Assembly: GCA_046485285.1 (NCBI GenBank) | Contig: JAWOHE010000008.1 | Coordinates: 1 to 33,055, forward strand | From: a bacterium | GTDB taxonomy: Bacteria > Hydrothermota > Tepidihabitantia > Tepidihabitantales > Tepidihabitantaceae | Direction: 5' to 3' | DNA length: 33,055 bases | In this document: positions 12,955-28,808 of the stretch, piece after piece | Position numbering within the stretch: position 1 is the stretch's first letter | Layout: each line of letters opens with the position of its first letter | Notes under the pieces: generated by a model | Database searches by the model: none | What the model was told of the DNA's origin: nothing | Seen by the model: the letters and a program-made list of their open reading frames with translations, nothing else | Made by a program: the position numbers and the translations under genes

Positions 12955-15654
12955 GTGAAGAAGCCAGCCGAAGCCGCGCGCGAGGAAATCGAGGCCCTGA
13001 AGGGCCGGCTGTCCGGGCTTGCCGACGGGCCGGAGCGGGTCGGGGTCCTGCTCGAGCTGGCCAGGCTGCTGCGCTTCAGGGAACCCCGGGCGGCGCTCCC
13101 GCGCCTCGAGGAGGCGGCCCGGCTCGCGTCAGCGGCCGGCGACCAGAGCCGGGTCGCGCTTTCGAGCTACCGGCTGGCGCAACTCCACTCGCACCTGGGA
13201 AGCCCCGAGCAGGCGGCGGAGTCGGCACAGCGGGCGCTGGCGGCCGCGCGCGCGTCGGGCGAGCCCAGTGACGAGGCGATGGCGTACCGGGCGATGGCAA
13301 CCGTGGCGCAGGCAAAGGGCGAGTACGCGAAGGCCCGGGAGAGCTTCGAGAAGGCCATCGCGGCGAGCGAGGCGGCCGGAGACCGGGAGGGCAGGTACGG
13401 CGCGCTGCAGGGTCTGGCCAACGTGAGCTACGCGCAGGGCAGGCACCTGGAGGCGCTGGGCTTCGAGCGGCAGTGCCTCGAACTGGCCGACCGGCCCGAG
13501 CAGGCGGCGGCGGTGCAGATGAACATCGGGCTGACGCTCCACGGCCTGGGCAGGCTGGAGGAGTCGGCCGGGCACTACTACCGGGCGATGGCAATCTGCG
13601 AGGAGCACGGTTTCGCCCTGCTGTCGGTGGCGCGGCACAACCTCGGCATCCTGTACCTGACGCGGAACCGGCTTGATGAGGCGGCGGACATCTTCAGCCA
13701 GGTCGTGGCCGAAGAACGGAGGAACCCGACCGAGCCGGCGTTCCTCGGCTGTGCCCTGATGAATCTCGGGGTTACCCACGAGCGTTCCGGCAATCACGCG
13801 GCCGCCGAGCGCGCCTACACCGAGTCGGCGGCGATACTCGAGCGGACGGGAAGAAAGGACATGCTCGCCAACCTGTACGGCAACATCGCCAGCCTGGCGG
13901 TTGCCGAGGGCCGGCTCGACCGGGCGCGGGACTACGTCGAGCGGTCTTACCGGCTGGCCGACGAGCTGGACCTGCGGCCTGAGCAGGGTGATGCCTGGGC
14001 CATCCGGGCCCGGGTCCGGTCCGAGGAGGGCGACGCGGCCGGGGCGAAGGCGGCATTCGAGCAGGCCATCGGCCTGCTCGCGGACAACCCGGAATCGGAC
14101 AAGCTCGCCCGGACCAGGCTCGAGTATGCGAAGCACCTTGTCGCGACCGGTGAGCCGGGCAAGGCCGGGCCGCTGCTCAGGCAGGCGCTCGAGGCGTTCC
14201 GGAACCTGACGGTCGTGACCGGTTCCGAGGAGGCCAACCGGCTGCTGTACGAGCTCGAACGGCCTGACGGCGGCGAGGCGGCGCTGGCCGGGGCGGTGCG
14301 CGGCCTCGCGGCGACAGGGCTGGAGCCGAACGATTTCTTCGCCCGGGTGCTCGGGATGCTGTGTGAGGGCCTGGGTTTCGAGAGCGGGGTGGTGCTGGCC
14401 GGGGACCGGCCGGTGGTGTTGCGCGGCCGGCCGCGGGTGGACCGGGCGGTCGAGCTGTGCCGGCAGGGCGAGCCGCGGTGCGGGGAGAGCGAGCTGGTGC
14501 TGCCGGTGCGGGCGGAAGGCCGGGCGCTTGGCGGGGTGTTCCTCTCGCGGTCGAAGCCCGGGGCCGCGGAGCAGGGCCGGGCGGTGCTGGCCGACATCGC
14601 GGACTGCCTGTCCGGGCCGCTGGGCAGACAGGCAGAGCTCTTCGCGGCGCCGGCCGGGGCAGAGGCGGAGATTCCCGGACTGCAGTACCGTGGTTTCGTG
14701 GGGGCCAACCCGGTGGTGCTGGAGGCGTTGAAGACGGTGGTGCGGGTGGCGGGCGCGTCGATACCGGTGCTGATACGGGGCGAGAGCGGGACGGGGAAGG
14801 AGCTGGCGGCGCGGGCGCTGCACGAGTCCGGGGCGCGGCGGGACAAGCCGTTCGTGGCGGTGAACTGCGCGGCGGTGCCGGAAGGGTTGTTGGAGGCGGA
14901 GTTCTTCGGGATCGAGAAGGGGGCGGCGACGGGTGTGGTGGCGCGGCGGGGGAAGTTCGAGCAGGCGGACGGGGGGACGGTGTTCCTGGACGAGATCGGG
15001 GACATGAGCGCGGGTCTGCAGGCGCGGCTGCTGCGGGTGGTGCAGGACAAGAAGGTGGAGCCGGTGGGTGGCGGGCGTGAGGTGGCGGTGGATGTGCGGG
15101 TGGTGGCGGCGACGAACCAGCCGCTGGAAGAGCTGATCGAGCAGGGCAGGTTTCGGCAGGACCTGTACTACCGGCTGAACGGGGTTGAGATCGGGTTGCC
15201 GCCGCTGCGGGAGCGGCGTGGTGACATCCCGGGACTGGTGCGGCACTTCATCGCGCGGAGCAACCAGCGGTTTGGGCGGGAGCTGGTGGGGGCGAGCGAG
15301 GAGGCGGTGGGGCGGCTGATGGCGCACGGGTGGCCGGGCAACGTGCGGCAGTTGCGGCACGTGGTGGAGCGGTCGGTGGTGCTGGCGCGGGGGCGGGTGC
15401 TGGAGGTTGGCGACCTGCCGCCGGAGCTGCGGCGGCTCGAGCCGGTCGAGGCGAGCGGGGCGACGGGCGGGCTGCGCGAGGCGAGGCGCAGGGTCAGGGC
15501 GAAGGCGGCCGGCGACCTCGAGCGGGCGATGATAATCGAGTATCTGGGCCGGGCGGAGTGGAATGTCAGCAAGGCGGCGGAGCTGGCCGGGTACAGCCGG
15601 GCGCAGTTCTACCGGCTGATGCGGCGGCACGAGGTCGTGCGGCCCGATCAGTAG
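12955..15654 (+). CDS. TPR-repeat sigma54-interaction-type AAA+ transcriptional regulator with Fis-type HTH
   Basis: N-terminal TPRs; GESGTGKE, VNCAA, FLDEIG, RVVAATN, FRQDLYYRL, WPGNVRQL; HTH NVSKAAELAGYSRAQFYR. Confidence 0.92.
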   Translation: MKKPAEAAREEIEALKGRLSGLADGPERVGVLLELARLLRFREPRAALPRLEEAARLASAAGDQSRVALSSYRLAQLHSHLGSPEQAAESAQRALAAARASGEPSDEAMAYRAMATVAQAKGEYAKARESFEKAIAASEAAGDREGRYGALQGLANVSYAQGRHLEALGFERQCLELADRPEQAAAVQMNIGLTLHGLGRLEESAGHYYRAMAICEEHGFALLSVARHNLGILYLTRNRLDEAADIFSQVVAEERRNPTEPAFLGCALMNLGVTHERSGNHAAAERAYTESAAILERTGRKDMLANLYGNIASLAVAEGRLDRARDYVERSYRLADELDLRPEQGDAWAIRARVRSEEGDAAGAKAAFEQAIGLLADNPESDKLARTRLEYAKHLVATGEPGKAGPLLRQALEAFRNLTVVTGSEEANRLLYELERPDGGEAALAGAVRGLAATGLEPNDFFARVLGMLCEGLGFESGVVLAGDRPVVLRGRPRVDRAVELCRQGEPRCGESELVLPVRAEGRALGGVFLSRSKPGAAEQGRAVLADIADCLSGPLGRQAELFAAPAGAEAEIPGLQYRGFVGANPVVLEALKTVVRVAGASIPVLIRGESGTGKELAARALHESGARRDKPFVAVNCAAVPEGLLEAEFFGIEKGAATGVVARRGKFEQADGGTVFLDEIGDMSAGLQARLLRVVQDKKVEPVGGGREVAVDVRVVAATNQPLEELIEQGRFRQDLYYRLNGVEIGLPPLRERRGDIPGLVRHFIARSNQRFGRELVGASEEAVGRLMAHGWPGNVRQLRHVVERSVVLARGRVLEVGDLPPELRRLEPVEASGATGGLREARRRVRAKAAGDLERAMIIEYLGRAEWNVSKAAELAGYSRAQFYRLMRRHEVVRPDQ

Positions 15655-15713
15655 AAGAGCGCGGCGCAGGTTTTCGGGCGATGCGGGGTCTAAGCGGCAG
15701 GGTTCATCCGCGC

Positions 15714-15741
15714 TTGCGCCGGGCGGCGGTCGGCGTAGACT
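15714..15741 (+). promoter_or_regulatory. Sigma70-like promoter for the porin-CotH-VTC operon
   Basis: TTGCGC-16-TAGACT, followed by AAAAGGAG. Confidence 0.5.
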
Positions 15742-15766
15742 GAACCCCTTAAAAGGAGTTGCAGTA

Positions 15767-16744
15767 CTGACCAAGAGTCGGCCGTCCGGGTTGCGGCCAG
15801 CGGTGCTCGTCATGCTCGCGCTCGCGGCCGCGCCAGCGCCCGCGGTGCGGGTGAGCGCCCGGTCCGGTACCGAGCGGCTCGACATCGACGGCTACGCCCA
15901 CGTCCAATGGCGGCAGATTCTCCAGGGCGGCGGCTCGCCGAGGTACGGTTTCGTCCTGCGGCGGGCGAGGGTCGAGTTCGACTACCGGTTTGACGAGCGG
16001 GTCGCGGCGAGCCTCGAGCTCGGCGGCGACCGGCTGGCGCTGTCGGTCAAGGACGCGTTCATCGAGTACCGGGTTGGCCGGCCGCTCCGGCTGGTCGCCG
16101 GCCTGCGGAAGATGCCGTTCAGCCGGGAGGAGCTTCGGCCTTCGAACCGGCTGCTGACGATCGAGCGCGGCGAGACCAACGACGAGTTCGGCGAACTAGG
16201 CTTCCTGGGCCGGGACATCGGGCTCGCGGTCGACGGCGAGCTATTCGAGCCGGTCCTGCCGGTCGGCTACGCGCTCGGGGTCTACAACGGCACCCGGTTC
16301 TACCGCGACGACAACGACGCCAAGCAGTTCGTCGAGCGGCTGACGGTCGCACCGGCGCGCTGGCTGGCGGTCGGCCTGAACGCGACCCAGCGCAACGACA
16401 CGCTGACCGGGCGGCTGGTCGGCGCGGGCGGCGGCGACGTGCTGGTCAGCCTCGGCGCCGCGACGGTCGAGGCCGAGGCGCTTGCCGGGACCGCCGAGCC
16501 GGGCCGGACGCTCGCCGGCGGCCACGTCACCGGCGCGTACCGGCTGGGCGCGTTCGAGCCGGTCGCGCGGTTCGAGCGGTTCAGCCCGGACGTCGCGGCC
16601 GGGGATTGGCAGACGACGGCAACCGCGGGACTGAACTGGCACGTCCACCGCGGGGCGCGGCTCAAGGCCAACCTCGTCGCCGAGTTCGAGCCCGGGAGCA
16701 GGGCCGGTTACGCGGCGGTGGTCGAGGCGCAGGCGGGATTCTAG
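15767..16744 (+). CDS. Phosphate-selective porin O/P-like outer-membrane protein (start CTG 15767 or TTG 15791)
   Basis: Signal peptide; FVLRRARV, KDAFIEY, KMPFSREEL, IER, GRDIG; terminal Phe. Confidence 0.75.
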   Translation: MTKSRPSGLRPAVLVMLALAAAPAPAVRVSARSGTERLDIDGYAHVQWRQILQGGGSPRYGFVLRRARVEFDYRFDERVAASLELGGDRLALSVKDAFIEYRVGRPLRLVAGLRKMPFSREELRPSNRLLTIERGETNDEFGELGFLGRDIGLAVDGELFEPVLPVGYALGVYNGTRFYRDDNDAKQFVERLTVAPARWLAVGLNATQRNDTLTGRLVGAGGGDVLVSLGAATVEAEALAGTAEPGRTLAGGHVTGAYRLGAFEPVARFERFSPDVAAGDWQTTATAGLNWHVHRGARLKANLVAEFEPGSRAGYAAVVEAQAGF

Positions 16745-16758
16745 AACAGGAGCAGACG

Positions 16759-17739
16759 ATGAACCTATTCGTGCGCGCGGTCGGGCTGAGCGTTCTCGCG
16801 GCGGTCGGCGGCTGTACCGCCGGGCCGGTGGCGCCGTCGCCGCTGGTCGGGGTCGTGGTTATCAACGAGTTCATGGCCGCGAACCGGAGCGTCATCGCCG
16901 ACGAGGCGGGCGACTACGACGACTGGGTCGAACTGCACAACCTCGGCGACAAGGACGTCCGGCTCGGGGCGATGTTCCTGACCGACGACCTCGCGGTGCC
17001 GATGAAGTGGGCGTTCCCGGACACGGTCCTGCACCCGGGCGACTTCCTGCTGGTCTGGTGCGACGGCGAGTTCAAGGAGGGGCCGCTCCACACCTCGTTC
17101 AAGCTGAACGCCGACAAGGGCGAGCAGCTCGGGCTCTTCGTCACCGACGGCGACCGGGTGATGTTCGTCGACACGCTGACCTTCGGGCCGCAGTACACCG
17201 ACACGTCGTTCGGCCGGATACCGGACGGCGGGGCGTGGCGGTCGCTGGCCCGGCCGACGCCGGGCGGCCCGAACAGCGACGGCGCGTCGGCGCAGCGCGG
17301 GACGCTGTTCCTCAACGAGTTCCTCGCCGACAACGGCTCGGTGCTGACCGACGAGCGGGGCGACTACGACGACTGGGTCGAGCTCCACAACGCCGGGGCG
17401 GGGCCGGTCCGGCTCGGCGGGCTGTACCTGACCGACGACTGGCGCGCGCCGCGGAAGTGGGCGTTCCCGGACACGGTGATTGCCGCGGGCGGGTTCCTGC
17501 TGGTCTGGTGCGACGGCGAGCCGGACGAGGGTCCGCTCCACGCGACGTTCGGGCTCAACGCGACGACCGGCGAGGAGCTCGGGCTGTTCGAGCCGGACCC
17601 GCCGTTCGTGCTGGTCATCGATACGCTCCGCTTCGGGCCCCAGCGCACCGACACCTCGTACGGCCGCCTGCCCGACGGCGGCGAGCAGTGGCTGTTGATG
17701 CCGGAGCCGACGCCGCGCCGGCCCAATACCGGACGCTAG
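16759..17739 (+). CDS. Lipoprotein with two lamin-tail domains (LTD)
   Basis: AGGAG SD + ATG 16759; lipobox VGGC; 2x (I/L)NEF(M/L)AxN…DYDDWVELHN…LTDD…FLLVWCDGE…PTP. Confidence 0.85.
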   Translation: MNLFVRAVGLSVLAAVGGCTAGPVAPSPLVGVVVINEFMAANRSVIADEAGDYDDWVELHNLGDKDVRLGAMFLTDDLAVPMKWAFPDTVLHPGDFLLVWCDGEFKEGPLHTSFKLNADKGEQLGLFVTDGDRVMFVDTLTFGPQYTDTSFGRIPDGGAWRSLARPTPGGPNSDGASAQRGTLFLNEFLADNGSVLTDERGDYDDWVELHNAGAGPVRLGGLYLTDDWRAPRKWAFPDTVIAAGGFLLVWCDGEPDEGPLHATFGLNATTGEELGLFEPDPPFVLVIDTLRFGPQRTDTSYGRLPDGGEQWLLMPEPTPRRPNTGR

Positions 17740-17746
17740 CCGGCCG

Positions 17747-19990
17747 ATGCGCCCGCTCGCGCTGACACTGGCCCTCGCCGCGGCCGGGACCGCGGGTTTC
17801 TTCGACGACGGGCGGGTCAACTTCATCGAGCTCCGTTTCGCCGAGCCGGACTGGGACGAGATCCTCGACAGCCTCTACGCGCGCGGGCTCGAGGAGCGGC
17901 TGGCCGGGACCGCGATCGTCAACGGGGTCCGCTTCGACAGCGTCGGGGTGCGCTACAAGGGCCACAGCTCCTACAACCCGTCCCGGCGCAAGAACCCGCT
18001 CAACATCAAGCTCGACTACCGGTTCCCGGACCAGGAGATCGAGGGCCACGGTACCCTACGGCTCGCCAACGTCTACAAGGACCCGAGTTTCGTCCGCGAG
18101 ACGGTGAGCTACGAGATCGCCCGGCGCTACATGGCGGCGGGCCGGGCGAACTACGCCGGCGTCACGATCAACGACATGCCGGTCGGGCTCTACACGAACA
18201 TCGAGGACGTCGACAAGCGGTTCCTGCGCGAGCGGTTCGGGTCGGACGGCGGCGCGAAGTTCAAGGGCCAGATGGACGACAGCGCGCCGGGCGCGGGCTG
18301 GAAGTACTACGGCGCGGACAGCGCGGCCTACCGGCGCTACTACGAGCTCGAGTCGGACTCGGGCTGGCGCGAGCTGGTCGGTTTCCTCGACACGATCGTG
18401 AACCACCGGGCCGCGGCCGAGGAAGTCCTCGACGTCGACCGCCACCTCTGGATGCTGGCGTTCGACATCGTGATGGTGAACCTCGATGCGCCGATAAACA
18501 TGCCCCAGAACTACTACCTCTACCGGCACGACGGCCGGTTCAGCCCGGCGGTCTGGGACCTGAACGAGAACTTCGGCGCTTTCCGGGACGTGATCGGCGT
18601 CGGCCAGTTGACGGTCGCGCAGATGCAGCAGTTCGACCCGTTCTTTCGCGCGGCGGACCCGGACTACCCGATCGCGGGCAGCTTCTTCACCGTGCCACGC
18701 CGGCGCAAGGCCTATGTCGCCCACGCGCGGACGATGATCGCGGAGTGCTTCGCGAGCGGCTGGTACGAGGATCGGGCGTTCGAGCTCCAGGACGCGATCG
18801 ACGCGCATGTCCGCGCCGACCCGAACAAGTTCTACAGCTACAATGATTTCACGAACAACGTCAACCGTTCGGTCGGCAGCGGGCCGCTGGCGATTGTCGG
18901 GCTGACCGAGCTGATGAACGTGCGGGTGGCGTACCTCGCGACCCGGCCCGAGTTCCAGGCCGAGCCGCCCGCGCTCGCCGACCCGGACGCGAGCCCGGCC
19001 CGTCCCCAGCCGGGCAATGACGTGCGGATAACGGTCCGGGCCGCGAACGCGGACTCTGTTTTTCTCGGCTGGCGGCAGACCCTGGCGGGCCGGTTTCACC
19101 GGGTCGCGATGCGCGACGACAGCGCGACCGGGACCTGGACGGCGATGGTCCGGGCCGGCGCGGGCGACCTTGACTACTGCTTCCACGCCGAGAACGCGGC
19201 CGCGGCGGCGTTCCTGCCCGCCCGGGCCGAGCACGAGTTCTTCACCCTGCCGGTCGCGGGCAGCGTCGTCATCAACGAGCTGATGGCGCTCAACGAGACG
19301 ACGGTCCGCGACCCGGCCGGCGAGTACGAGGACTGGGTTGAGCTCTACAACAACTCGACCGTGCCGGTCGCGCTCCGGGGCTGGTACCTGAGCGACGACA
19401 CCGCGAACCCGACGAAGTGGACCTTCCCGAACGTGACCATCCCGGCGGGCAGGTTCCTCGCAGTCTGGTGCGACGACGACGTCGGCCAGCCCGGCCTGCA
19501 CGCCAACTTCCAGCTCGCGGCCGGCGGCGAGGCGGTCGTGCTGACGAACTCCGACCTTGACCTGGCCGACCGGGTCGTCTTTGGCCAGCAGACCGCGGAC
19601 ATCAGCCACGGCCGCTGGCCGAACGGAACCGGTTCGTTCCGCAGAATGAACCCGACCTTCCTCGCCGCGAACGACAGCGGGGTCGGCATCGCGGCCGACG
19701 TCGCGGTCGCGGCCCGGCTCGAGGCGACCGCGCAGCCGAACCCGTTCCCGGGCCGGACGAGCATCCGCTGGGAGCTCACGGCGCCGGCGGTCGTAACGCT
19801 CCGGGTCTTCGACGCCGCGGGCCGGCTCGTCGCGACGCCCTGCGACGGGCCGATGGCGGCCGGCCGCCACGAAAGGTCTTTCGCCCCGGGCCCGGGCGCG
19901 CCGGGCGGGGTGTACTTCGCGCAACTGCAGGCCCGCGATGACGCGGGCGACTGCCTGACCGGGGCCATCAAGCTGGTCCGGACGAGGTAG
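17747..19990 (+). CDS. cotH: CotH kinase family protein + LTD + T9SS-like CTD
   Basis: VGVRYKGHSS, KNPLNIKLD, VRETVSY, GLYTNIEDVD, NYYLY, WDLNENFG; C-terminal LTD and PNPF…GVYF tail. Confidence 0.88.
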   Translation: MRPLALTLALAAAGTAGFFDDGRVNFIELRFAEPDWDEILDSLYARGLEERLAGTAIVNGVRFDSVGVRYKGHSSYNPSRRKNPLNIKLDYRFPDQEIEGHGTLRLANVYKDPSFVRETVSYEIARRYMAAGRANYAGVTINDMPVGLYTNIEDVDKRFLRERFGSDGGAKFKGQMDDSAPGAGWKYYGADSAAYRRYYELESDSGWRELVGFLDTIVNHRAAAEEVLDVDRHLWMLAFDIVMVNLDAPINMPQNYYLYRHDGRFSPAVWDLNENFGAFRDVIGVGQLTVAQMQQFDPFFRAADPDYPIAGSFFTVPRRRKAYVAHARTMIAECFASGWYEDRAFELQDAIDAHVRADPNKFYSYNDFTNNVNRSVGSGPLAIVGLTELMNVRVAYLATRPEFQAEPPALADPDASPARPQPGNDVRITVRAANADSVFLGWRQTLAGRFHRVAMRDDSATGTWTAMVRAGAGDLDYCFHAENAAAAAFLPARAEHEFFTLPVAGSVVINELMALNETTVRDPAGEYEDWVELYNNSTVPVALRGWYLSDDTANPTKWTFPNVTIPAGRFLAVWCDDDVGQPGLHANFQLAAGGEAVVLTNSDLDLADRVVFGQQTADISHGRWPNGTGSFRRMNPTFLAANDSGVGIAADVAVAARLEATAQPNPFPGRTSIRWELTAPAVVTLRVFDAAGRLVATPCDGPMAAGRHERSFAPGPGAPGGVYFAQLQARDDAGDCLTGAIKLVRTR

Positions 19991-20035
19991 CCGGATGCCG
20001 CGCCGGACCCGACGGAGACAGGACACGAGGAGCCA

Positions 20036-21499
20036 ATGAACAACCGCAAGCTGCCCATCGTCATCGCCGGGTTCGCGCTGGCCGCGCTCGCCGCCGGCCA
20101 GGCCTACGACGGCCTGACGCTCTACAACCCGATGATGAGCCGGAACGCCCGGCTGATAACCAACGACGGCCAGGCGGTGAACACCTGGTACTGCAACTCA
20201 AACCCGGCCTACATGCCGTACCTGATGCCGGACAGCACGATGTGGCGGCCCGGGGTGTACTCGGCCGCGTCGCTGCGCCCCGCGGCCTACGGCGGGCTCA
20301 TCGAGCGGTACTCGTGGGACGGCGACGTCATCCAGAGCTTCACCTGGTCCGGGGCCAACTACATCCAGCACCACGACATCCAGCCGATGCCGAACGGCAA
20401 CATCCTCGTCGTCTCGGTCGACCGCTACACCCGCGCCGAGGCCCAGGCGCTGGGCCGGGTCAGCATCTCGGGCAGTTACATCTGGTCCGAGATGATCGTC
20501 GAGTACGACCCGGTCGCGGATTCAGTGGTCTGGGCCTGGCGGGTCTGGGACCACCTCGTCCAGAACGTCGACCCGGCGAAGCCGAACTACGGCGTGATTT
20601 CCGAGTACCCGGGCCGGCTAGACATCAACGTCGGGGCGGTCCAGTTTCAGGGTGACTGGATCCACGTCAACGCGGTCGACTACTGGGAGGAGGAGGACCT
20701 CATCGTCTTCTGCTCGCACTACCTCCACGAACTCTACGTCATCGACCACTCGACGACGACCGAGGAGGCGCGGGGCTCGACCGGCGGCCGGCACGGCAGG
20801 GGCGGTGACTTCCTCTACCGCTGGGGCAACCCGCAGAACTACGGCCGGGGCACGTCGGAAGACCGGCATTTCTATGTCGTCCACGGCGCGAACTGGATAC
20901 AGCCGGGGCTCCCGGGCGCGGGCAACATCCTCGTCTTCAACAACGGCGACCGACCGGGCTCGGCCAACGACTACTCGGTCGTCGAGGAAATCACCCCGCC
21001 GCGCGATTCGCTGGGCGGTTTCCACATCCATTCGGACTCGGCGTTCGGGCCGGCCGAGCCGACCTGGTTCTACCAGAACCCGGGCGCGTTTTACTCCAAC
21101 CACCTGAGCGGCGCGTTCCGGATGCCAAACGGCAACACCTTCATGATCGAGGGCACGAGCGGCCGGATGACCGAGGTGACCGCCGAAAAGCAGGTCGTCT
21201 GGCAGTACAACATCGGCTCACAGACCGGCCGCGCGATCAAGTACCCGCGCGACTACGTCGTCGGGGTCGAGGCGGAGCGCCCGGCGCCTCACGCCGCGCG
21301 CCCGCCGCACGCGACGATCGCCCGCGGCAGGCTGTTCCTGCCCGGGGAGGGCGGCCGGGCGGAACTGCTTGACGCGGCCGGGCGCCGGGTGATGGTACTC
21401 GCGTCGGGCGCGAACGACGTGTCGCGACTCGCGCCCGGGGTGTATTTCGTCCGCGCGGGCGGGCCGGCCGGGGCGACCCGGGTCGTGCTGGCGAGGTAG
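20036..21499 (+). CDS. Arylsulfotransferase (ASST)-like beta-propeller 1 with T9SS-like tail
   Basis: QHHDIQPMPNGN, DWIHVNAV, IDHSTTT, LYRWGNPQNY, ILVFNNG. Confidence 0.85.
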   Translation: MNNRKLPIVIAGFALAALAAGQAYDGLTLYNPMMSRNARLITNDGQAVNTWYCNSNPAYMPYLMPDSTMWRPGVYSAASLRPAAYGGLIERYSWDGDVIQSFTWSGANYIQHHDIQPMPNGNILVVSVDRYTRAEAQALGRVSISGSYIWSEMIVEYDPVADSVVWAWRVWDHLVQNVDPAKPNYGVISEYPGRLDINVGAVQFQGDWIHVNAVDYWEEEDLIVFCSHYLHELYVIDHSTTTEEARGSTGGRHGRGGDFLYRWGNPQNYGRGTSEDRHFYVVHGANWIQPGLPGAGNILVFNNGDRPGSANDYSVVEEITPPRDSLGGFHIHSDSAFGPAEPTWFYQNPGAFYSNHLSGAFRMPNGNTFMIEGTSGRMTEVTAEKQVVWQYNIGSQTGRAIKYPRDYVVGVEAERPAPHAARPPHATIARGRLFLPGEGGRAELLDAAGRRVMVLASGANDVSRLAPGVYFVRAGGPAGATRVVLAR

Positions 21500-21501
21500 C
21501 G

Positions 21502-22995
21502 GTGAAGACGACACCGGGGCTGGCGGCCGCGGCGCTCCTGCTCTGCCTCGCGGCCGCGGCGCGGGCGCAGGTCTTCGACGGCCTGACGCTCTACAACTCG
21601 CTCTACAGCCGGGAGACCCGGCTGGTTGACAACGACGGCCGGACCGTGAACTCCTGGTACTGCCACTCGACCCCGGCCTACATGCCCTACCTGATGCCGG
21701 ACAGCACGCTCTGGCGGCCCGGGGCCTACTCGGGCGCGTCGATGCGCGGCGGCGTCTACGGCGGGCTCATCGAGCGCTACTCGTGGGACGGCGACACCAT
21801 CCAGAGTTTCCTCTGGTCCGACCAGAACCACCAGCAGCACCACGACATCCACCCGATGCCGAACGGACACATCCTGCTGCTGGCCTGGGAGCGCAAGACC
21901 CGGGCCGAGGCGCAGGCGATGGGCCGGGTCAGCATCACCGGCGAGATGTGGCCGGAGGAGATAATCGAGTACGACCCGGACGGCGACTCGGTCGTCTGGG
22001 CGTGGCGGGTCTGGGACCACCTGATCCAGGACGTCGACCCGGCGAAGCCGAATTACGGCGTCGTCCGCGACCACCCGGAGCGCATCGACGTCAACCTCGG
22101 CACGCTGTTCAGCTACGGCGACTGGATTCACGCCAACATCGTCGAGTACAGCGAGGAGCGGGACGAAATCGTCTTCAGCTCCCACTTCCTCAACGAACTC
22201 TACGTCATCGACCACTCGACGACGACCGAGGAGGCGCGGGGCTCGACCGGCGGCCGGCACGGCAAGGGCGGCGACATCCTCTACCGCTGGGGCAACCCGC
22301 AGAACTACCGGCGGGGCGGGCCGGAGGACCAGCACTTCTTCGTCGTCCACGGCGCAAACTGGATCAAGCCCGGGCTCCGCGGCGCGGGCAACATCCTCGT
22401 CTTCAACAACGGCGACCGGCCCGGCAACCAGAACGACTACTCGAGCGTCGAGGAAATCACCCCGCCGCTCGACTCCAGCGACCACTACTACATCCACCCG
22501 GACTCGGCCTTCGGCCCGGCCGCGCCGGGCTGGACCTACTCGAACCCGGGCGTGTTCTACTCCGGGCACATGTCGGGCGCGTACCGCCTGCCCAACGACA
22601 ACACGGTCATCTGCGAGGCGGTCAGCGGCCGGGTGACCGAGGTGACCTGCGACGGCGACATTGTCTGGACGTTCAACGCCGGGAACTGGACCGGCCGGGT
22701 CATCAAGTACCCGCGTGACTACATCGTCGGGGTCGAGGCGGAGCACCCGGCGCCTCACGCCGCGGGGCCGGCGCACGCGACAATCGTCCGCGGCACGCTG
22801 TACCTGCGGCCCTCATCCTACCCTCTCCCAGTGGGAGAGGGGCAGGAGGTGAGGGGGCGAAGCCTCCTGCTCGATGCCTCGGGCCGCCGGGTGATGGCGC
22901 TCGCGCCGGGTGCGAACGACGTGTCGCGGCTCGCGCACGGGGTGTATTTCGTACGGTCGGCGCCCGGCGTCACCAGGGCCCTCGTTACCAGATAG
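21502..22995 (+). CDS. Arylsulfotransferase (ASST)-like beta-propeller 2 (tandem paralog)
   Basis: Same motifs as 20036-21499, with long identical peptide stretches. Confidence 0.85.
   Translation: MKTTPGLAAAALLLCLAAAARAQVFDGLTLYNSLYSRETRLVDNDGRTVNSWYCHSTPAYMPYLMPDSTLWRPGAYSGASMRGGVYGGLIERYSWDGDTIQSFLWSDQNHQQHHDIHPMPNGHILLLAWERKTRAEAQAMGRVSITGEMWPEEIIEYDPDGDSVVWAWRVWDHLIQDVDPAKPNYGVVRDHPERIDVNLGTLFSYGDWIHANIVEYSEERDEIVFSSHFLNELYVIDHSTTTEEARGSTGGRHGKGGDILYRWGNPQNYRRGGPEDQHFFVVHGANWIKPGLRGAGNILVFNNGDRPGNQNDYSSVEEITPPLDSSDHYYIHPDSAFGPAAPGWTYSNPGVFYSGHMSGAYRLPNDNTVICEAVSGRVTEVTCDGDIVWTFNAGNWTGRVIKYPRDYIVGVEAEHPAPHAAGPAHATIVRGTLYLRPSSYPLPVGEGQEVRGRSLLLDASGRRVMALAPGANDVSRLAHGVYFVRSAPGVTRALVTR
22810..22855. 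repeat. Palindromic REP-like element inserted in-frame in a CDS
   Basis: CCCTCA TCCT A CCCTCTCCCA G TGGGAGAGGG GC AGGA GG TGAGGG; encodes PSSYPLPVGEGQEVRG. Confidence 0.75.
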
Positions 22996-23004
22996 GAGAT
23001 TGCG

Positions 23005-24564
23005 ATGAAGGAGAGAAGCTGTCTTTGCACCCTCCTGGTGCTTGGGGCGCTGGTGTCGTGCCCGGCCCAGGGCTGGCTGGCGCGGTACGACGGCCCGGCC
23101 GGCGACGAGGACGAGGCGCGGGCGATCGCGGCCGACGGCGCGGGCGGGGTCTACGTCACCGGCCAGAGCTGGGGAAGCACCTTTGACTGGGCGACGGTCC
23201 GCTACGGCCCGTCCGGGAACCAGCTCTGGGTCAGCCGCTACGACGGCCCGGCCGGCGGGTTCGACGGCGCGCGGGCGGTCGCGGCACAGGGCGACCGGGT
23301 CGTCGTCACCGGCGCGAGCGCGGCCGCCAACATGTTCGACGACATGCTGACCATCGCCTACACCACCGCCGGCGAGACGGCCTGGACCGCCCGCTACGAC
23401 GGCCCGGGCCAGGCCAATGACGCCGGCCTGGCGGTCGGCTTCGACCCGGCCGGCCGGGTCTACGTCACCGGCTACTCCAACGGCGGCGGCGAGTTCTGGG
23501 ACTTCACGACCGCCTGCTACAGCCCGGCCGGGGCCGAGCTCTGGCTGGTCCGGCACCCGACCGAGGACGAGAGCTACGCGGTCGGGCTCGCGGTCGACGA
23601 GGCCGGCAACTGCCACGTCACCGGCTCGTCCGGCAGTCCCTACACGATGAGCTGGGACTACCTGACGATCAAGTACGACTCGGCCGGGAACGAACTCTGG
23701 GGCGCCCGCTACAACGGCCCGGCCGACGAGCACGACGAGGCCCGGGCGATCGCGCTCGACGCGGCCGGCAACGTCTACGTCACCGGCGGCAGCGCCCGGC
23801 CCGGGACCAACGCCGACTTCACGACGATCAAGTACAGCCCGGCCGGCGAGACGCTCTGGCTGCGGCGCTACGACGGCCCGGCGAGCGGGGCCGACTGGGC
23901 GAACGCGATCGCGGTCGACGCGGCCGGCAACGCCTACGTCACCGGCTCGAGTCAGGGCACGACGACCGACGTCGACTACGCGACGGTCAAGTACGCGCCG
24001 GACGGGACCCAGCTCTGGGTCGCCCACTACGACGGCCCGGCAAGCGGCTACGACGAGGCGCGGGCGATCGCGGCCGACGTCGACGGCATCTACGTCACCG
24101 GCGCGAGCGCCGGCGACGGGACCAGGGCCGACTACGCGACGGTCAAGTACGACTTCGCGGGCCGGCAGGAGTGGGTCAGTCGCTACGACGGCCCGGCGAG
24201 CCGGTTCGACGAGCCGCGCGGGATCGCGCTCGACGGCACGGGCGGGGTCTGCGTCACCGGGTTCAGCGTCGGCGACGGCACCGGCGCCGACTACGCGACC
24301 CTTCGCTATGCGACCTGCGGCGCGGCCGAGCCGGCGCCGGGCGACCGGCGCGTCGCGGCCCGCTCCGGCCCGACCATCGTCCGGGGCCGGCTGGTCCTCG
24401 GCTCGGGGTTCGCGGCACCGGGGTCGGACGCGGTCCTGCTCGACGCGGCCGGACGCCGGGTTATGGCGCTCGCGCCGGGCGCGAACGACATGGCCCGGCT
24501 CGCGCCCGGGGTCTATTTCGCCCGGTCCGGGAACGCGGTCGCAAGGGTCGTGGTCGGGAAGTAG
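23005..24564 (+). CDS. SBBP-repeat beta-propeller secreted protein with T9SS-like tail
   Basis: About 7 repeats of WxxRYDGP…D.ARAIA.D..GNVYVTG.S…DYATVKY; AGGAG SD. Confidence 0.85.
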   Translation: MKERSCLCTLLVLGALVSCPAQGWLARYDGPAGDEDEARAIAADGAGGVYVTGQSWGSTFDWATVRYGPSGNQLWVSRYDGPAGGFDGARAVAAQGDRVVVTGASAAANMFDDMLTIAYTTAGETAWTARYDGPGQANDAGLAVGFDPAGRVYVTGYSNGGGEFWDFTTACYSPAGAELWLVRHPTEDESYAVGLAVDEAGNCHVTGSSGSPYTMSWDYLTIKYDSAGNELWGARYNGPADEHDEARAIALDAAGNVYVTGGSARPGTNADFTTIKYSPAGETLWLRRYDGPASGADWANAIAVDAAGNAYVTGSSQGTTTDVDYATVKYAPDGTQLWVAHYDGPASGYDEARAIAADVDGIYVTGASAGDGTRADYATVKYDFAGRQEWVSRYDGPASRFDEPRGIALDGTGGVCVTGFSVGDGTGADYATLRYATCGAAEPAPGDRRVAARSGPTIVRGRLVLGSGFAAPGSDAVLLDAAGRRVMALAPGANDMARLAPGVYFARSGNAVARVVVGK

Positions 24565-24572
24565 CCCGGGCG

Positions 24573-25409
24573 GTGGCATCGACCGGGGACGGACGACCGG
24601 CCGGAATCACCGCCGGCGCGCGGACCGAGTTCCGGCTCGAATACAAGTTCCTGACGCCGATGAAGTTCCTACCCGAAATCCGGGCCGCGATGATGCCCTG
24701 GCTCCGGCTCGACGACTTCAGCGCGTCGCGGCCGGACCGGCAGTACACCGTCCGGAGCATCTACTACGACAACCGGCGGTTCGACTGCTACGAGGAGAAG
24801 GTCGAGGGCTTCACCGCCAAGCGCAAGCTCCGGATCCGGGGCTACGACCAGCCCGGCCCGGACAGCCGGGTCTTCCTCGAAATCAAGTACAAGAACCAGG
24901 ACTACATCGGCAAGAGCCGGGCGCCGGTGCCGTGGGACCGGCTGCCGGCGGTCTTCGACCCGGGCCGGGCCGGCGCGCCCTGGAAGCCGGGCAGCCCGGC
25001 CGAGGCCGCGGCCCGGCGCTTCCTCTACCACTACCACCGCCGGCGGATGCTGCCGGTCGTGCTGGTCGCCTACGAGCGCGAGGCGTTCTACAGCCGGTTC
25101 GACCGGACGCTCCGGATAACCTTCGACAAGAACGTCCGCAGCCGGCTCTACCCGGACCTCGGCTCGCTCTACGTCGACCGCGGCGCGAAGTTCGAGGCGC
25201 CCGGCCTGTTCGTGCTCGAGGTCAAGTTCTTCAGCAGCCTGCCGCGCTGGGTGCGGGACATCGCGACCCGGTTCGACCTGCTCCGGGTCGCCAACTCCAA
25301 GTACGCGCTCGGCATCGAGTGCCAGCGGGTCGAGAAGAAGTTCCTGCGCGGCGTCGGCCATTGGGGCGAGCGCTTCCCGGCGCCGGCCCGGCCGGGAGCC
25401 GCCGCGTGA
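24573..25409 (+). CDS. VTC (polyphosphate polymerase, CYTH/TTM) domain protein
   Basis: RLEYKF, VRSIYYD, KLRIRGY, FLEIKYK, YEREA, RITFD, VLEVKF, SKY; start reassigned to GTG 24573 after the upstream stop. Confidence 0.88.
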   Translation: MASTGDGRPAGITAGARTEFRLEYKFLTPMKFLPEIRAAMMPWLRLDDFSASRPDRQYTVRSIYYDNRRFDCYEEKVEGFTAKRKLRIRGYDQPGPDSRVFLEIKYKNQDYIGKSRAPVPWDRLPAVFDPGRAGAPWKPGSPAEAAARRFLYHYHRRRMLPVVLVAYEREAFYSRFDRTLRITFDKNVRSRLYPDLGSLYVDRGAKFEAPGLFVLEVKFFSSLPRWVRDIATRFDLLRVANSKYALGIECQRVEKKFLRGVGHWGERFPAPARPGAAA

Positions 25410-25443
25410 CCGCGAATACGCCCGACAGTGAGGAGTCGCCGCA

Positions 25444-26130
25444 ATGACGGGATTGCTCAACAACATCACCCAAGACCTGAACCTGCTTCCACTCCAGGCG
25501 CCGGTCGTCATCGCCAAGATCGCGGTGGCGTTCATCTGCGCCTTCTTCATCGCCTTCATCTACCGGAAGACCTACCGCGGGCCGGGCTACTCGGTCGCCT
25601 ACACCCACACGCTGATCCTGCTCTCGATGGCGACCGCGGTCGTGATAATGGTCATCGGCAACAACCTCGCCCGCGCCTTCGGGCTGGTCGGCGCGATGTC
25701 GATCGTCCGGTTCCGCCACGCGGTCAAGAACACCCAGGACATCGTCTACGTCTTCCTCTCGCTCGCGGTCGGGATGGCGTCCGGGGTCGGCTTCTACACC
25801 ATCGCCATCACCGGGACGCTGTTCATCGGCCTGATCGTCTACCTGCTCGCGAAGTCCCGGCTCGGCACGCCGACGCGCAACGACTACCTGCTCCAGTTCA
25901 ACTCCCGCTCGGCCGGCGGCCCGGACGCGCCCTGGCTCGCGGTGCTGGCGAAGCACTGCCGCAAGCTGACGCCGATAAACGTCCGCAGCCTCGGCGACAC
26001 CGACCTGATCGAGCTCTCCTACTACGTCCGGCTCAAGGACCCGGCCCGGGGCGACGCGCTCATCGAGGAACTCAACCGGGCGCGCGGGATCGAGAGCGTC
26101 AACCTGTTCTTCGACGAAGAGCAGATCTAG
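25444..26130 (+). CDS. DUF4956 family membrane protein
   Basis: IGNNLARAFGLVGAMSIVRFR, GMASGVG; GAGGAG SD; adjacent to VTC. Confidence 0.88.
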   Translation: MTGLLNNITQDLNLLPLQAPVVIAKIAVAFICAFFIAFIYRKTYRGPGYSVAYTHTLILLSMATAVVIMVIGNNLARAFGLVGAMSIVRFRHAVKNTQDIVYVFLSLAVGMASGVGFYTIAITGTLFIGLIVYLLAKSRLGTPTRNDYLLQFNSRSAGGPDAPWLAVLAKHCRKLTPINVRSLGDTDLIELSYYVRLKDPARGDALIEELNRARGIESVNLFFDEEQI

Positions 26131-27134
26131 CGGCCGGGCAGCTCGAGGACCGGGGCGAGCCCCGACGAGGCCGTCAGCTCGAGCCCGGGCGTGACGAACA
26201 GCGCCTCGATGCCATCGGTCGCCTCGACCAGCTCCAGCGCCGACGGGCCGAGCACGAACAGCGCGGTCGCCCACGCGTCGGCGAGGACCGGGTCGGCCGC
26301 GACGACGGTCACGCCGGCGAGCGCGCGGGCGGGCCGGGCGGTGCGCGGGTCGAAGATGTGGCAGTAGGTCGAGCCGTCGGCGTCGGTGAAGAACCGCTCG
26401 TAGTCGCCCGAACTGACGACCGCGAGGTCCTCGGCCCGGACGACGGCGATGATCTCGCCGCCGCGCGGACTGCGGATCCCCACCCGCCACGGCGCGCCGG
26501 CCTTCCGGCCGATGGCGTAGACGTCGCCGCCGGCGTCGACGAGCCCGGACCTGACGCCCTCGGCGCGCAGGACCCGGGCCGCCTCGGCGAGCGCGTAGCC
26601 CTTGGCGATGCCGCCGAGGTCGACGCGCAGGCCGGGCCGGCGCTTGGCGACGCTGTCGCCGGCGACGACTAGGTACTGCCAGCCGACCAGCGCCCGGGCA
26701 CTGTCGAGCGCGCGCCGGCCCGGCACCGCCGGCCGGTCGGTGCCGATGCCCCAGAGCGCGACGAGCGGCTGGACCGTGACGTCGAACGCGCCGCCCGAGG
26801 CCGCGCTGACCTCGAGCGCGGCGCGGATGACCCCGGCCAGCCCGGCGTCAACGAACGGCCGGTCCTCCCGGTTGAACGCCCAGAGCGGGCTGGTCGAGTC
26901 GCGGAAGTTGAAGGCCCGGTTTATCTCCTCGAGCCGGCGGAACGCGGCCTCGATGCCCCGGTCCGCGGCCGGGCCGGCCGCGGTCAGCGTGACGTAGGTG
27001 TTCATCAACAGCCGGGTCCGGCGGGCAGGCGCGGGCGCGTCGGCCCGGCGACAGCCGGGGGAGAGCAGGGCGACGAGCGCGCAGGCGGCGAGCGCGCGGG
27101 CGAACAGACGCCTGCGCCCGGCGGCCGGTTTCAC
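26127..27134 (-). CDS. apbE: FAD:protein FMN transferase ApbE (lipoprotein)
   Basis: GAFDVTV, DLGGIAKGY, VDAGGD, SSGDYERF, HIFDPRT, ADAWATA; start GTG 27134; lipobox SPGC. Confidence 0.92.
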   Translation of the reverse strand: MKPAAGRRRLFARALAACALVALLSPGCRRADAPAPARRTRLLMNTYVTLTAAGPAADRGIEAAFRRLEEINRAFNFRDSTSPLWAFNREDRPFVDAGLAGVIRAALEVSAASGGAFDVTVQPLVALWGIGTDRPAVPGRRALDSARALVGWQYLVVAGDSVAKRRPGLRVDLGGIAKGYALAEAARVLRAEGVRSGLVDAGGDVYAIGRKAGAPWRVGIRSPRGGEIIAVVRAEDLAVVSSGDYERFFTDADGSTYCHIFDPRTARPARALAGVTVVAADPVLADAWATALFVLGPSALELVEATDGIEALFVTPGLELTASSGLAPVLELPGR

Positions 27135-27147
27135 CGCCCGGCCCGGC

Positions 27148-28332
27148 TCACACCCGGCGACAGCGGGCAAGGAGTTCGACGAGGACGCCGAAGCCGACCA
27201 GCACGACGAACACCCAGAACAGCCAGCCGCAGATCGGCACCGCGCAGAGCGCGTAAGTCAGCACGACGCCGACCGGCGCGGTCAGCCAGATCGAGGCGCT
27301 CCGCCCGCCGAAGACGTTGAACAGCCAGCGGCCGAACAGCATCCCAGCGAGAATCTTGGCGATGTAGAGCCCGGCGAGCCAGAGCGCGCCGCCGAGGAAG
27401 CCGATCGGGAAGGTCACGATCAGCACCAGCGCGAGCACGAACGCGGCCGGCGCGGCGAAGAACGCGATCGCGCCCGCGCCGACGGTCCGGCCGAAGCGCT
27501 CGAGGGCGGAGTCAATCGCCAGGCGCAGGGCGTGCTTCCAGATCGCGACGAGCAGGAAGGCGAGCGCGAGCGCGCCGAGCACCGAGAGCAGGGCGAAGGG
27601 CAGGATGATGAGCCGGAACAGGTCCGGCCGGGGCCGGAACGGCCTGACGTCGTCCATCGCCCCGCGCGCCCGGCGGGTGAACGCGATCTCGCCGAAGACG
27701 GCGTCGCGGTTGCCGATGTCGATCTCCTTCTCGGCCGTGTAGCGCAGGCTCCCGAAGACCCGGGCGTCCTCGGTCAGCACGATCCGCTGGTCGACCGCGC
27801 AGACGACGTCGCCGTCGACCGTGCCCGAGATGACGATTTCCCGGGCCGCGGCGCGGACGTCGCCGCGCACCGCGCCGTCGATCGCCAGCATCGTCGCGCC
27901 GCAGACGACGTCGCCGCCGACCTCGGCGCCGCGGGCGATGGTGATGTTGGTGCAGGCGGCGAGGACGTCGCGCCCGACCCGGCCGGCGACCCGGACCGTC
28001 GCGGCGGCCGCCCGGACCGCGCCGGCGACCGAGTCGTCGACCGCGAGGTGCTGACAGCCCGCGGTAACGTCGCCGCCGATCGGGCCGGAAAGCGTGATGG
28101 TCTGGCCGCCGAGGAACAGGTTGCGGGTGACGCGGCCGGTGACCGCGACGGTCTGACAGCCGGCCGCGACACTGCCGTCGACCTGGCCGTCGAGGCGCAG
28201 GGCGCCGCCGCCGAAATAGAGGTCGCCGAACTGAAGTTCGCCGGCGGGAAGGGTGAAGCTCGGGCCGGACTCGAAGCGCGCGGCCGCGGCCAGCGCGAGC
28301 GCGAGGACAAGCAGGGTCGCTGTGCGGCGCAT
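27148..28332 (-). CDS. Bactofilin-like (polymer-forming) beta-helix repeat membrane protein
   Basis: Signal peptide; 15-aa repeats GxVxGDVxAxxxxLxI; C-terminal multi-TM region; TGATG coupling with the upstream gene. Confidence 0.8.
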   Translation of the reverse strand: MRRTATLLVLALALAAAARFESGPSFTLPAGELQFGDLYFGGGALRLDGQVDGSVAAGCQTVAVTGRVTRNLFLGGQTITLSGPIGGDVTAGCQHLAVDDSVAGAVRAAAATVRVAGRVGRDVLAACTNITIARGAEVGGDVVCGATMLAIDGAVRGDVRAAAREIVISGTVDGDVVCAVDQRIVLTEDARVFGSLRYTAEKEIDIGNRDAVFGEIAFTRRARGAMDDVRPFRPRPDLFRLIILPFALLSVLGALALAFLLVAIWKHALRLAIDSALERFGRTVGAGAIAFFAAPAAFVLALVLIVTFPIGFLGGALWLAGLYIAKILAGMLFGRWLFNVFGGRSASIWLTAPVGVVLTYALCAVPICGWLFWVFVVLVGFGVLVELLARCRRV

Positions 28333-28808
28333 CACTTGTCTCCCTTCTCGACGTCGCGGAGCTCCTCGCGGACCCGCTCCTCGATCCGGCGGCCGAGCGT
28401 CTCCCAGTCCGCGTCGGAGAAGGTCTCGGCCCGGTCGGCGAAGGCGCGGCGCAGGCCGTCGCGGACCCCGCGCTCGACCCGGCGGGCGATCCGGTCCGGG
28501 TCCGGGGCGACGACCTTCTTCCGGCGGCGCCGACTCGCGCGGGCGCCGCCGCCGAGCGAAATCATGCAACCGAGCAGGAAGCCGATATTGTAGCCCCAGC
28601 CGGCGTTGTTGGCCTCGTAGATGCCGACATCGCGCGTGAACAGGCTGACGACGAAGGTGACGATGATAATCAGGCCGTGCCAGAGTCCGGCCCAGAACCC
28701 GGCTTTGCTGTCAACCGACGCCCAGCGCTCGTTGCCCGGCGCACAGCCGGCGGCGAGCACGAACACCAGGACCAGCGCGGCGAGCAGGACGGTCTGCTTC
28801 GTGAACAT
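28332..28808 (-). CDS. Conserved hypothetical membrane lipoprotein
   Basis: AGGAGG SD; LAAGC lipobox; AGFWAGLWHG…IYEANNAGWGYNIGFLLG. Confidence 0.75.
   Translation of the reverse strand: MFTKQTVLLAALVLVFVLAAGCAPGNERWASVDSKAGFWAGLWHGLIIIVTFVVSLFTRDVGIYEANNAGWGYNIGFLLGCMISLGGGARASRRRRKKVVAPDPDRIARRVERGVRDGLRRAFADRAETFSDADWETLGRRIEERVREELRDVEKGDK

Follow-up and report, generated by a model that had tools for sequence, protein, structure and literature searches.

A Vtc4-like enzyme, a DUF4956 membrane protein, and exported proteins in one bacterial operon: a possible polyphosphate export system

The cotH/VTC/DUF4956 gene set is a known bacterial module that is functionally unexplained. Here we describe a diderm, extended form of this module in an uncultured bacterium of the Hydrothermota (assembly GCA_046485285.1, contig JAWOHE010000008.1), where it makes up an operon of eight forward-strand genes at positions 15767 to 26130 of the 33,055-nt stretch of DNA that was analyzed, hereafter the window (~70% G+C). 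Tentatively, and with less than even confidence, we read this operon as a polyphosphate synthase and translocase core to which a lipoprotein, four surface enzymes, and a barrel of the outer membrane have been added. This reading rests on a VTC-domain protein with an intact Vtc4-type active site, on its near-constant pairing with DUF4956, and on a periplasmic adaptor gene that precedes this pair in most relatives.

The core enzyme and its membrane partner

Pfam searches assigned the eight genes, in order, as follows.

15767..16744, + strand: Porin_O_P barrel (PF07396, E 2.9e-13, 50.2 bits against a cut-off of 20.9)
16759..17739, + strand: two-LTD lipoprotein of 326 aa (LTD, E 3.4e-19, in two stretches)
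17747..19990, + strand: exported CotH kinase with LTD and a C-terminal domain like those of the type IX secretion system (T9SS) (PF08757 CotH, E 2.5e-33, 116 bits; LTD, E 4e-15)
20036..21499, + strand: ASST-family propeller 1 (ASST1), with signal peptide (PF05935, E 4.8e-16, 59.2 bits against a cut-off of 24.2; Arylsulfotran_2, E 6.8e-14)
21502..22995, + strand: ASST-family propeller 2 (ASST2) (PF05935 Arylsulfotrans, E 1.3e-16, 61.1 bits against a cut-off of 24.2)
23005..24564, + strand: SBBP-repeat propeller (SBBP, E 2.9e-25, 88 bits)
24573..25409, + strand: soluble VTC-domain protein of 278 aa (PF09359, E 3e-37, 128.8 bits against a cut-off of 23)
25444..26130, + strand: DUF4956 inner-membrane protein (PF16316, E 5e-15, 56 bits against a cut-off of 30.6)

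Successive gaps between these genes are 14, 7, 45, 2, 9, 8, and 34 nt. A preliminary description of this DNA, made from its letters alone, had reported eight closely packed, same-strand genes with these domains, and the Pfam assignments and gaps of 2 to 45 nt upheld it. The N-termini of all six noncore products are signal-peptide-like or lipoprotein-like; the VTC protein has no such signal, and DUF4956 is a membrane protein. Terminator-like sites were no more frequent in the operon than expected by chance (5 observed against 3.8 expected, every one of them intragenic), and a scan of the operon for promoter patterns returned nothing beyond chance.

The VTC protein starts at GTG 24573, which is the sole in-frame start after the stop codon of the SBBP gene and lies 8 nt downstream of it. 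VTC is its only Pfam domain, and PF09359 is the only domain in the 120 homologues listed. A profile made from 20 homologues picked from these 120 matched the catalytic domain of yeast Vtc4 (3g3q) at an E value of 3e-12 and matched Vtc2 and Vtc3 more weakly. In yeast Vtc4 the triphosphate is reported to be bound by K200, R264, R266, K281, R361, K458, S457, and Y359 and Mn2+ by E426; the same preprint reports that substituting the eight triphosphate ligands leads to less polyphosphate, and it names K458 as the one residue that differs in the inactive Vtc2 and Vtc3, where it is I or L (10.1101/2023.01.27.525886). When the profile alignment was read against the numbering of chain 8i6v_E, residues K25, R87, R89, K105, Y167, R169, E216, S242, and K243 of the window protein aligned with K200, R264, R266, K281, Y359, R361, E426, S457, and K458 of Vtc4, respectively, and all nine positions were invariant in the 20 homologues. 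Because all nine ligands are kept, the counterpart of K458 included, the active site is of the active Vtc4 type, which makes this protein a candidate Vtc4-like triphosphate-tunnel polyphosphate polymerase.

In an AlphaFold model built from a 24-row alignment (pLDDT 83), the second core protein, DUF4956, begins with a short helix, continues with five long ones, and ends in a beta-alpha-beta-beta-alpha-beta domain. The best Foldseek matches of this model, at E values of 3e-3 to 2e-2, were ACT domains and the C-terminal domain of Mycobacterium tuberculosis MgtC (2lqj, ~5e-3). DUF4956 and MgtC/SapB proteins such as Salmonella MgtC have in common a membrane domain of about five helices and a C-terminal ACT-like domain, whereas the invariant motif NLARAFGLVGAxS..RFR and the obligate VTC neighbor belong to DUF4956. 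The likeness is architectural only, as DUF4956 fails the profile cut-offs of the MgtC family (Pfam MgtC, E 1.3e-4, 22.7 bits against 31.4; NCBIfam PRK09977 for MgtC/SapB, E 4e-5, 23 bits against 214). Across the alignment, the loops of DUF4956 hold 0.2, 2.3, 0.0, 3.0, 0.4, and 2.8 lysine plus arginine residues, counts that fit an N-terminus on the outside and a cytoplasmic ACT-like domain. The natural protein P0127, in which a signal peptide and PF06439 precede DUF4956, agrees with the outside N-terminus. With its N-terminus out and C-terminus in, DUF4956 would hold its ACT-like domain beside the cytoplasmic VTC protein.

The VTC and DUF4956 pair had first been described as a "split Vtc4." This is not literally right, given that DUF4956 is MgtC-like, with five helices and an ACT-like domain. 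We rejected the identification of DUF4956 with the Vtc membrane domain, which presumably belongs to a different Pfam family: at an E value of ≤0.01, Pfam returned only DUF4956 itself and the weak MgtC match. Set against the yeast VTC complex (Vtc4/Vtc3/Vtc1), the window pair has a homologous catalytic domain, nine identical ligands, and a soluble candidate polymerase domain that is genetically tied to a membrane protein, and in both systems the far side of the membrane is noncytoplasmic. It differs in that the VTC protein is without an SPX or a Vtc-type membrane domain, the membrane partner is separate and MgtC-like, and relatives add an adaptor, which yeast does not have.

The DUF4956 family is large and its members are short. 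Our profile matched 7491 cluster representatives (50% identity) at an E value of ≤0.001 among 1.84 billion, and the best 150 of these matches were all ≤249 aa. In Bacteroides thetaiotaomicron, a DUF4956 gene lies beside one of DUF2490, which we take to be a family of predicted outer-membrane barrels. These two adjoining genes, BT3498-BT3499, are tabled at -7.6-fold in an iron-dependent stimulon, a value for which the direction of comparison is unverified (PMC10434189).

Gene neighborhoods and a periplasmic adaptor in relatives

We surveyed related loci by scanning the VTC alignment against genome contigs and taking the best 80 of 573 confirmed loci with 10-kb flanks. All 80 came from metagenome-assembled genomes or single cells, mostly of phyla in the Fibrobacterota-Chlorobiota-Bacteroidota (FCB) group, to which the bacterium of the window also belongs. 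Genes were called as open reading frames (ORFs) of ≥70 aa and identified with single-domain hidden Markov models (HMMs) built from the window proteins. In 78 of the 80 loci the gene that immediately follows VTC, in the same orientation, encodes DUF4956; the other two are L013, where the contig ends, and L069. The pairing of VTC with DUF4956 that had been noted in the window is therefore all but obligate.

Loci without CotH were examined further by running 68 of 150 candidate neighboring ORFs against Pfam. Here a gene of ~350 aa, mostly without a Pfam match, always came before VTC. By searches with phmmer and an HMM, 67 of the 80 loci carry this gene immediately before VTC and in the same orientation (for example, L016:8938-9990), and so we regard adaptor-VTC-DUF4956 as the widespread core. 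Its identity as a periplasmic adaptor came from two comparisons. Against solved structures, a profile of 18 such proteins matched a resistance-nodulation-division (RND) membrane-fusion protein at an E value of 3e-9, AcrA at 2e-6, MacA at 4e-6, and EmrA at 6e-4. The structural model (pLDDT 84) combines a helix at the N-terminus with a long hairpin of helices and with beta domains, and Foldseek matched it to MacA (E 1e-12), EmrA, and AcrA at E values of 1e-12 to 1e-10, with 64 PDB matches at ≤0.001.

Known adaptors of the MacA, EmrA, and AcrA kind belong to envelope-spanning export pumps. Like the adaptors of the tripartite pumps MacAB-TolC, EmrAB-TolC, and AcrAB-TolC, the proteins found here are anchored in the membrane at the N-terminus and contain barrel domains and a coiled-coil hairpin; unlike in those pumps, the inner-membrane partner in these relatives is VTC plus DUF4956 rather than an ATP-binding cassette (ABC), major facilitator superfamily (MFS), or RND transporter. 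The neighboring ORFs scanned by Pfam included no TolC-like gene beside the adaptor. Judged from homology, the adaptor gene that relatives carry lends new support to export and suggests that the product of the core leaves the cell. We found no description of the adaptor association, nor of the version with porin, ASST, and SBBP genes, in open-access papers and preprints on CotH, VTC, DUF4956, and polyphosphate.

The window belongs to a clade with a different arrangement. In a quick maximum-likelihood tree of 81 VTC rows, the window and 14 loci formed one group with an SH-aLRT value of 88, which is below the star threshold. The named loci of this group are ranked by NCBI in Caldifarciminota (candidate division WOR-3) and Stahliibacteriota, and the nearest relative of the window is L001, at 90% identity. 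The adaptor gene is absent from L001 to L009, L011 to L013, and L059, as well as from the window; adaptor and porin set occur together in L010 and L014. Over the whole survey, porin genes were found in 9 loci, ASST genes in 14, and SBBP genes in 13. The order porin-LTD-CotH-ASST (one to three copies)-SBBP-(adaptor)-VTC-DUF4956 recurs in L002, L004, L005, L007, L008, L010, L011, and L014, and L012 has a rearranged version of it. These nine loci are all those of the clade with at least 8 kb upstream, as L001, L003, L006, L009, and L013 are broken by contig ends. VTC identities across the nine range from 41 to 64% (best-segment values), and the recurrence of the gene set at such distances in every related locus with enough flank argues that the arrangement is not due to chance.

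In the clade without the adaptor, VTC residues 1 to 20 (24573-24630 in the window) form an N-terminal extension (~20 residues) in which the stretch P-x-G-[IV]-x-x-x-A-[RK] is conserved. This extension is missing from homologues whose loci have the adaptor, and it could be a docking element in place of the adaptor.

A CotH kinase domain lay within 10 kb of the VTC core in 38 of the 80 loci, and in 20 of those the CotH gene starts directly after DUF4956. The survey thus bore out the earlier remark that VTC, DUF4956, and CotH adjacency recurs in bacteria, as do published loci. Genes for cotH, a polyphosphate polymerase, and DUF4956 (with DUF4832) have been described as accessory genes beside Gram-positive pel operons in streptococci, clostridia, and bifidobacteria, with no function given (10.1101/768473), and NELoc-2 of Clostridium perfringens is reported to carry VTC-"tubulin"-CotH genes (PMC2879425). 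In a study of Streptococcus intermedius, the authors state that they found no cotH/VTC/DUF4956 synteny beyond pel loci (PMC12345266). The pel-linked triad and the window operon share the same three adjoining families, with CotH secreted in both. They differ in that the operon sits in a diderm host and includes an outer-membrane barrel, LTD proteins, T9SS-like tails, and ASST and SBBP propellers, with the adaptor added in relatives. No pel-type genes were seen in the window or among the Pfam-scanned neighbors, a scan in which the CotH loci were not screened for pel.

Exported proteins of the window operon and flanking genes

The exported CotH protein matched Bacillus cereus CotH (5jd9) at an E value of 3e-5, and its residues D247 and D271 align with an Asp pair in 5jd9. 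That pair has the same 23-residue spacing as D228 and D251 of Bacillus subtilis CotH, and by our own matching of the chain numbering they are probably the same two residues. Mutation of B. subtilis D228 and D251 is reported to inactivate the kinase (PMC7821199). In our alignment, D247 and D271 were kept in 24 of 25 rows, the remaining row being a gap. The window protein and Bacillus CotH therefore share the CotH domain with both catalytic Asp residues, whereas the window protein, which has a signal peptide, an LTD domain, and a sorting-type tail, is an exported protein of a nonsporulating diderm, which makes the supply of ATP a problem.

ASST1 and ASST2 are paralogues with 68% identity, and their family shows strong conservation that includes many invariant His residues (alignment of the two window copies with 21 of the 22 full-length orthologues). 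The early label "ASST-like" holds insofar as both proteins exceed the Pfam Arylsulfotrans cut-off, which, with the His-rich conserved motifs, they have in common with the periplasmic AssT of Escherichia coli. The label fares less well against solved structures: a profile of 23 orthologues reached E. coli AssT (3elq) only at an E value of 0.12 over residues 352 to 375 (24 residues) with the catalytic residues unmapped, and the ASST protein alone had no match. The SBBP propeller matched NCBIfam Lepto_SBBP_lipo at an E value of 8e-28, below the cut-off. Its N-terminus carries a lipobox-like ...ALVSC (23005-23070) and its C-terminus resembles a sorting domain, which amounts to two different surface-anchoring signals.

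The C-terminal tails of ASST1, ASST2, and the SBBP propeller are plainly alike, and the CotH tail resembles them. Taken singly, the window tails did not reach the curated cut-offs: with TIGR04183 the E value was 0.021 for the CotH tail and 0.0066 for the ASST1 tail, with no match for ASST2 or SBBP, and with FlgD_ig it was 4e-4 for the CotH tail. A Kelch-repeat propeller encoded elsewhere in the window (6186-8171, - strand) has a T9SS type A sorting domain that passes TIGR04183 (41.6 bits, above cut-off), which indicates that this organism uses T9SS-type tails. We aligned 49 C-terminal segments of 90 residues, comprising the four window tails, the window Kelch tail, and 44 of 46 orthologue tails (two L012 SBBP fragments were left out). 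Scanned one at a time, 27 of the 49 matched Por_Secre_tail and 22 matched FlgD_ig (E ≤ 0.01). To call all four proteins tagged with a C-terminal sorting domain, as was done at the outset, is thus reasonable by homology, although their own scores in the window fall short.

The porin gene starts at CTG 15767, with AAGGAG 7 nt before it, or at TTG 15791. Its product has a signal-peptide-like N-terminus and ends in ...QAGF, and the orthologues end in QAQAxF (six of nine orthologues aligned with the window protein). A C-terminal aromatic residue is a mark of outer-membrane barrels. The protein falls in the same Pfam family as OprP and OprO of Pseudomonas, which are phosphate and pyrophosphate selective, and its ~320 aa fall short of the 370 positions of the profile. 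In all nine porin-bearing loci the porin gene is next to the gene for the LTD lipoprotein. In the window, the latter starts at ATG 16759 after AGGAG, and its N-terminus, MNLFVRAVGLSVLAAVGGC, contains a lipobox-like ...AVGGC.

The following genes flank the operon in the window.

8221-12099, - strand: STAND-type protein of 1292 aa with NNH2, NACHT, and at least seven HEAT repeats (Pfam), which may be a defense or signaling NTPase
12955-15654, + strand: gene with TPR, sigma-54 activator, and HTH_8 domains, directly upstream of the operon
26127-27170, - strand: ApbE-family (flavin transferase) gene, convergent on the operon, with a 4-nt overlap with the DUF4956 stop
27148-28569, - strand: long bactofilin-domain protein (domain match)
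29604-33053, + strand: open-ended protein of >1150 aa with a weak, below-cut-off match to NF053851 (Bdellovibrio mosaic adhesive trimer fiber N-terminus, E 7e-9)

Control of the operon by the upstream sigma-54 activator was considered and dropped. No sigma-54 -24/-12 site (TGGCAC-N5-TTGCW) was found before the porin gene; the sole match in the window, with two mismatches at most allowed, was at 1308, against 7.3 expected by chance. Among the five related loci having upstream sequence, one (L002) has a perfect site, TGGCACGGCGGTTGCA, ~150 nt upstream of its porin gene. The GC skew rises to ~0.26 at 14001 to 16000, a stretch that takes in the 3' portion of the activator gene as well as the operon start, and stays between -0.10 and 0.10 in the remainder of the window.

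Polyphosphate export and its rivals

Under our tentative reading, VTC would polymerize the gamma-phosphate of ATP into polyphosphate at the inner face of the membrane, and an oligomer of DUF4956 would hand the chain to the periplasm. In most relatives, the adaptor would then couple the DUF4956 step to exit across the outer membrane. The window clade would have lost the adaptor and gained the Porin_O_P barrel, the LTD lipoprotein, and the four exported proteins with T9SS-like tails. These four, CotH-LTD, the two ASST propellers, and the SBBP propeller, would act on the exported polyanion at the surface of the cell by binding it, using it, or processing it. We only infer that VTC polymerizes, that DUF4956 translocates, that the chain passes through the porin, and that CotH uses polyphosphate or LTD binds it. 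The direction of transport is drawn from the adaptor gene in relatives, from the analogy with yeast VTC, and from the exported nature of all accessory proteins.

A number of observations weigh against this scheme, the first of them at the core. In those triphosphate-tunnel enzymes that are pure triphosphatases, the tunnel has a comparable lining of basic and acidic side chains, so the conservation of ligands in VTC is no proof of a polymerase over a triphosphatase. The Foldseek search with the DUF4956 model returned nothing at an E value of ≤0.001 and matched no solved transporter. Nor do fused proteins tie the two parts together. A search for longer VTC-containing proteins gave no fusions, and a search for longer DUF4956-containing proteins gave four, two of which (461 and 481 aa) carry VTC plus DUF4956. 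We rejected these as true fusions, for the C-terminal motifs of VTC are replaced by unrelated sequence, and read them as frameshift read-through. P0124, P0125, and P0126, which join VTC to DUF4956 or DUF4956 to a propeller, have garbled junctions where conserved motifs belong and are probably frameshift artefacts of metagenome assemblies.

The same holds for the route across the outer membrane. The adaptor gene is our strongest argument for export, yet in the window itself a six-frame search with its profile returned nothing at an E value of ≤10. The Porin_O_P match is partial, covering profile positions 35 to 187 of 370, and a profile of seven porin orthologues found no PDB chain at an E value of ≤10, OprP and OprO included. 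What was proposed as a phosphate-porin-like channel thus keeps its place in the Porin_O_P family, above the cut-off, and loses its similarity to solved OprP and OprO. Porin, ASST, and SBBP genes are moreover confined to the window clade (15 of 81 tree rows). Whether porin and ASST genes are conserved with the core had been posed beforehand as a refuting test for the polyphosphate reading; they are within the clade (nine of nine loci with enough flank) and are not outside it.

Genetic data from Gram-positive relatives also count against the scheme in its simplest form. In S. intermedius, deletions of DUF4956 and of CotH are reported to lower aggregation by >50% in 10% ASM (the medium of that study) and to change the level of Pel, with more Pel in the DUF4956 mutant, and no such aggregation drop is reported for the VTC deletion (PMC12345266). 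Given these phenotypes and a CotH gene missing from about half of the loci, the simple line in which VTC feeds CotH is weakened.

The first rival is an island for phosphate acquisition or homeostasis that works in the import direction: the porin would take up phosphate or pyrophosphate, the propellers and CotH-LTD would act on external phosphorus compounds, and VTC-DUF4956, as a polyphosphate store with an MgtC-like regulator, would store or sense at the inner membrane the phosphate that comes in, with nothing exported. The membership of the porin in the Porin_O_P family fits this idea. So do phosphate-related genes beside the core in other loci, namely PPK2 (4 of 80), CYTH (3), PHO4 (2), and, following DUF4956, an SdiA-regulated/phytase-like propeller (8), and so does the resemblance of DUF4956 to MgtC, for which effects on phosphate uptake and on PhoR are reported (PMC12345266). 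However, the adaptor found in 67 of 80 loci belongs to a class of export-pump proteins, CotH is a kinase fold with intact catalytic Asp residues and not a phosphatase, and Pfam found no phosphatase, PstS, or PhoU domain in the operon. We consider import unlikely, though it has a real claim to attention.

A second rival, which we judge quite doubtful, is modification of a surface matrix. Here CotH-LTD would phosphorylate, and the ASST-like proteins would sulfate or otherwise modify, a surface protein or glycan, as is suspected for the triad beside Gram-positive pel operons, with VTC and DUF4956 acting as a cytoplasmic or membrane regulator and not as a supply of donor. The triad beside pel operons points this way, and so do the S. 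intermedius deletions, which affect Pel and aggregation for DUF4956 and CotH, with no effect reported for VTC. An ACT-like domain is a typical small-molecule-sensing fold, and the known roles of MgtC are described as regulatory (PMC12345266), a further point against translocation by DUF4956. Yet neither the operon nor its flanks contain, by Pfam, a gene for a glycosyltransferase or a polysaccharide synthase, and a regulatory role leaves both the strictly conserved polymerase ligands and the adaptor gene unexplained.

That the operon has no joint function, its exported proteins being unrelated and co-transcribed with VTC and DUF4956 by chance, would suit the absence of porin, ASST, and SBBP from 66 of 81 tree rows and of CotH within 10 kb in 42 of 80 loci, but it is very improbable in the face of a gene set that recurs in nine of nine loci with enough flank at 41 to 64% VTC identity, intergenic gaps of just 2 to 45 nt, and a CotH association that recurs in Gram-positive bacteria.

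As for polyphosphate export, the envelope-spanning polyphosphate system first proposed for this DNA has gained the Vtc4-type site, the DUF4956 pairing, the adaptor in relatives, and the phosphate-related genes, and it has shed the split Vtc4 and the general conservation of porin, ASST, and SBBP. A broader and more specific version seems improbable to us at present: that FCB-group diderms secrete polyphosphate through a machine dedicated to this task, running from VTC to a DUF4956 translocon and on to the adaptor (or, in this clade, to Porin_O_P and the LTD lipoprotein), with polyphosphate as the phosphoryl donor or scaffold for CotH-LTD and its companions. The VTC domain has been mapped across eukaryotes in a review (PMC10657179), and the literature that we found credits bacterial polyphosphate synthesis to PPK1 and PPK2. 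If the secretion machine were real, it would be a third bacterial route of polyphosphate synthesis beside these two, and it would answer how an extracellular kinase gets fueled.

DUF4956 is widespread, with its 7491 representatives, and its genes nearly always adjoin that of a Vtc4-like enzyme whose active site is intact, so an entire class of putative polyphosphate enzymes of bacteria has gone unstudied. The adaptor clue makes the idea of polyphosphate export directly testable, and the operon offers a compact gene set. Export would matter for biofilm matrices, in view of the triad linked to pel, for the cycling of phosphorus by uncultured phyla of sediments and groundwater, and for the way in which secreted CotH kinases obtain a phosphoryl donor.

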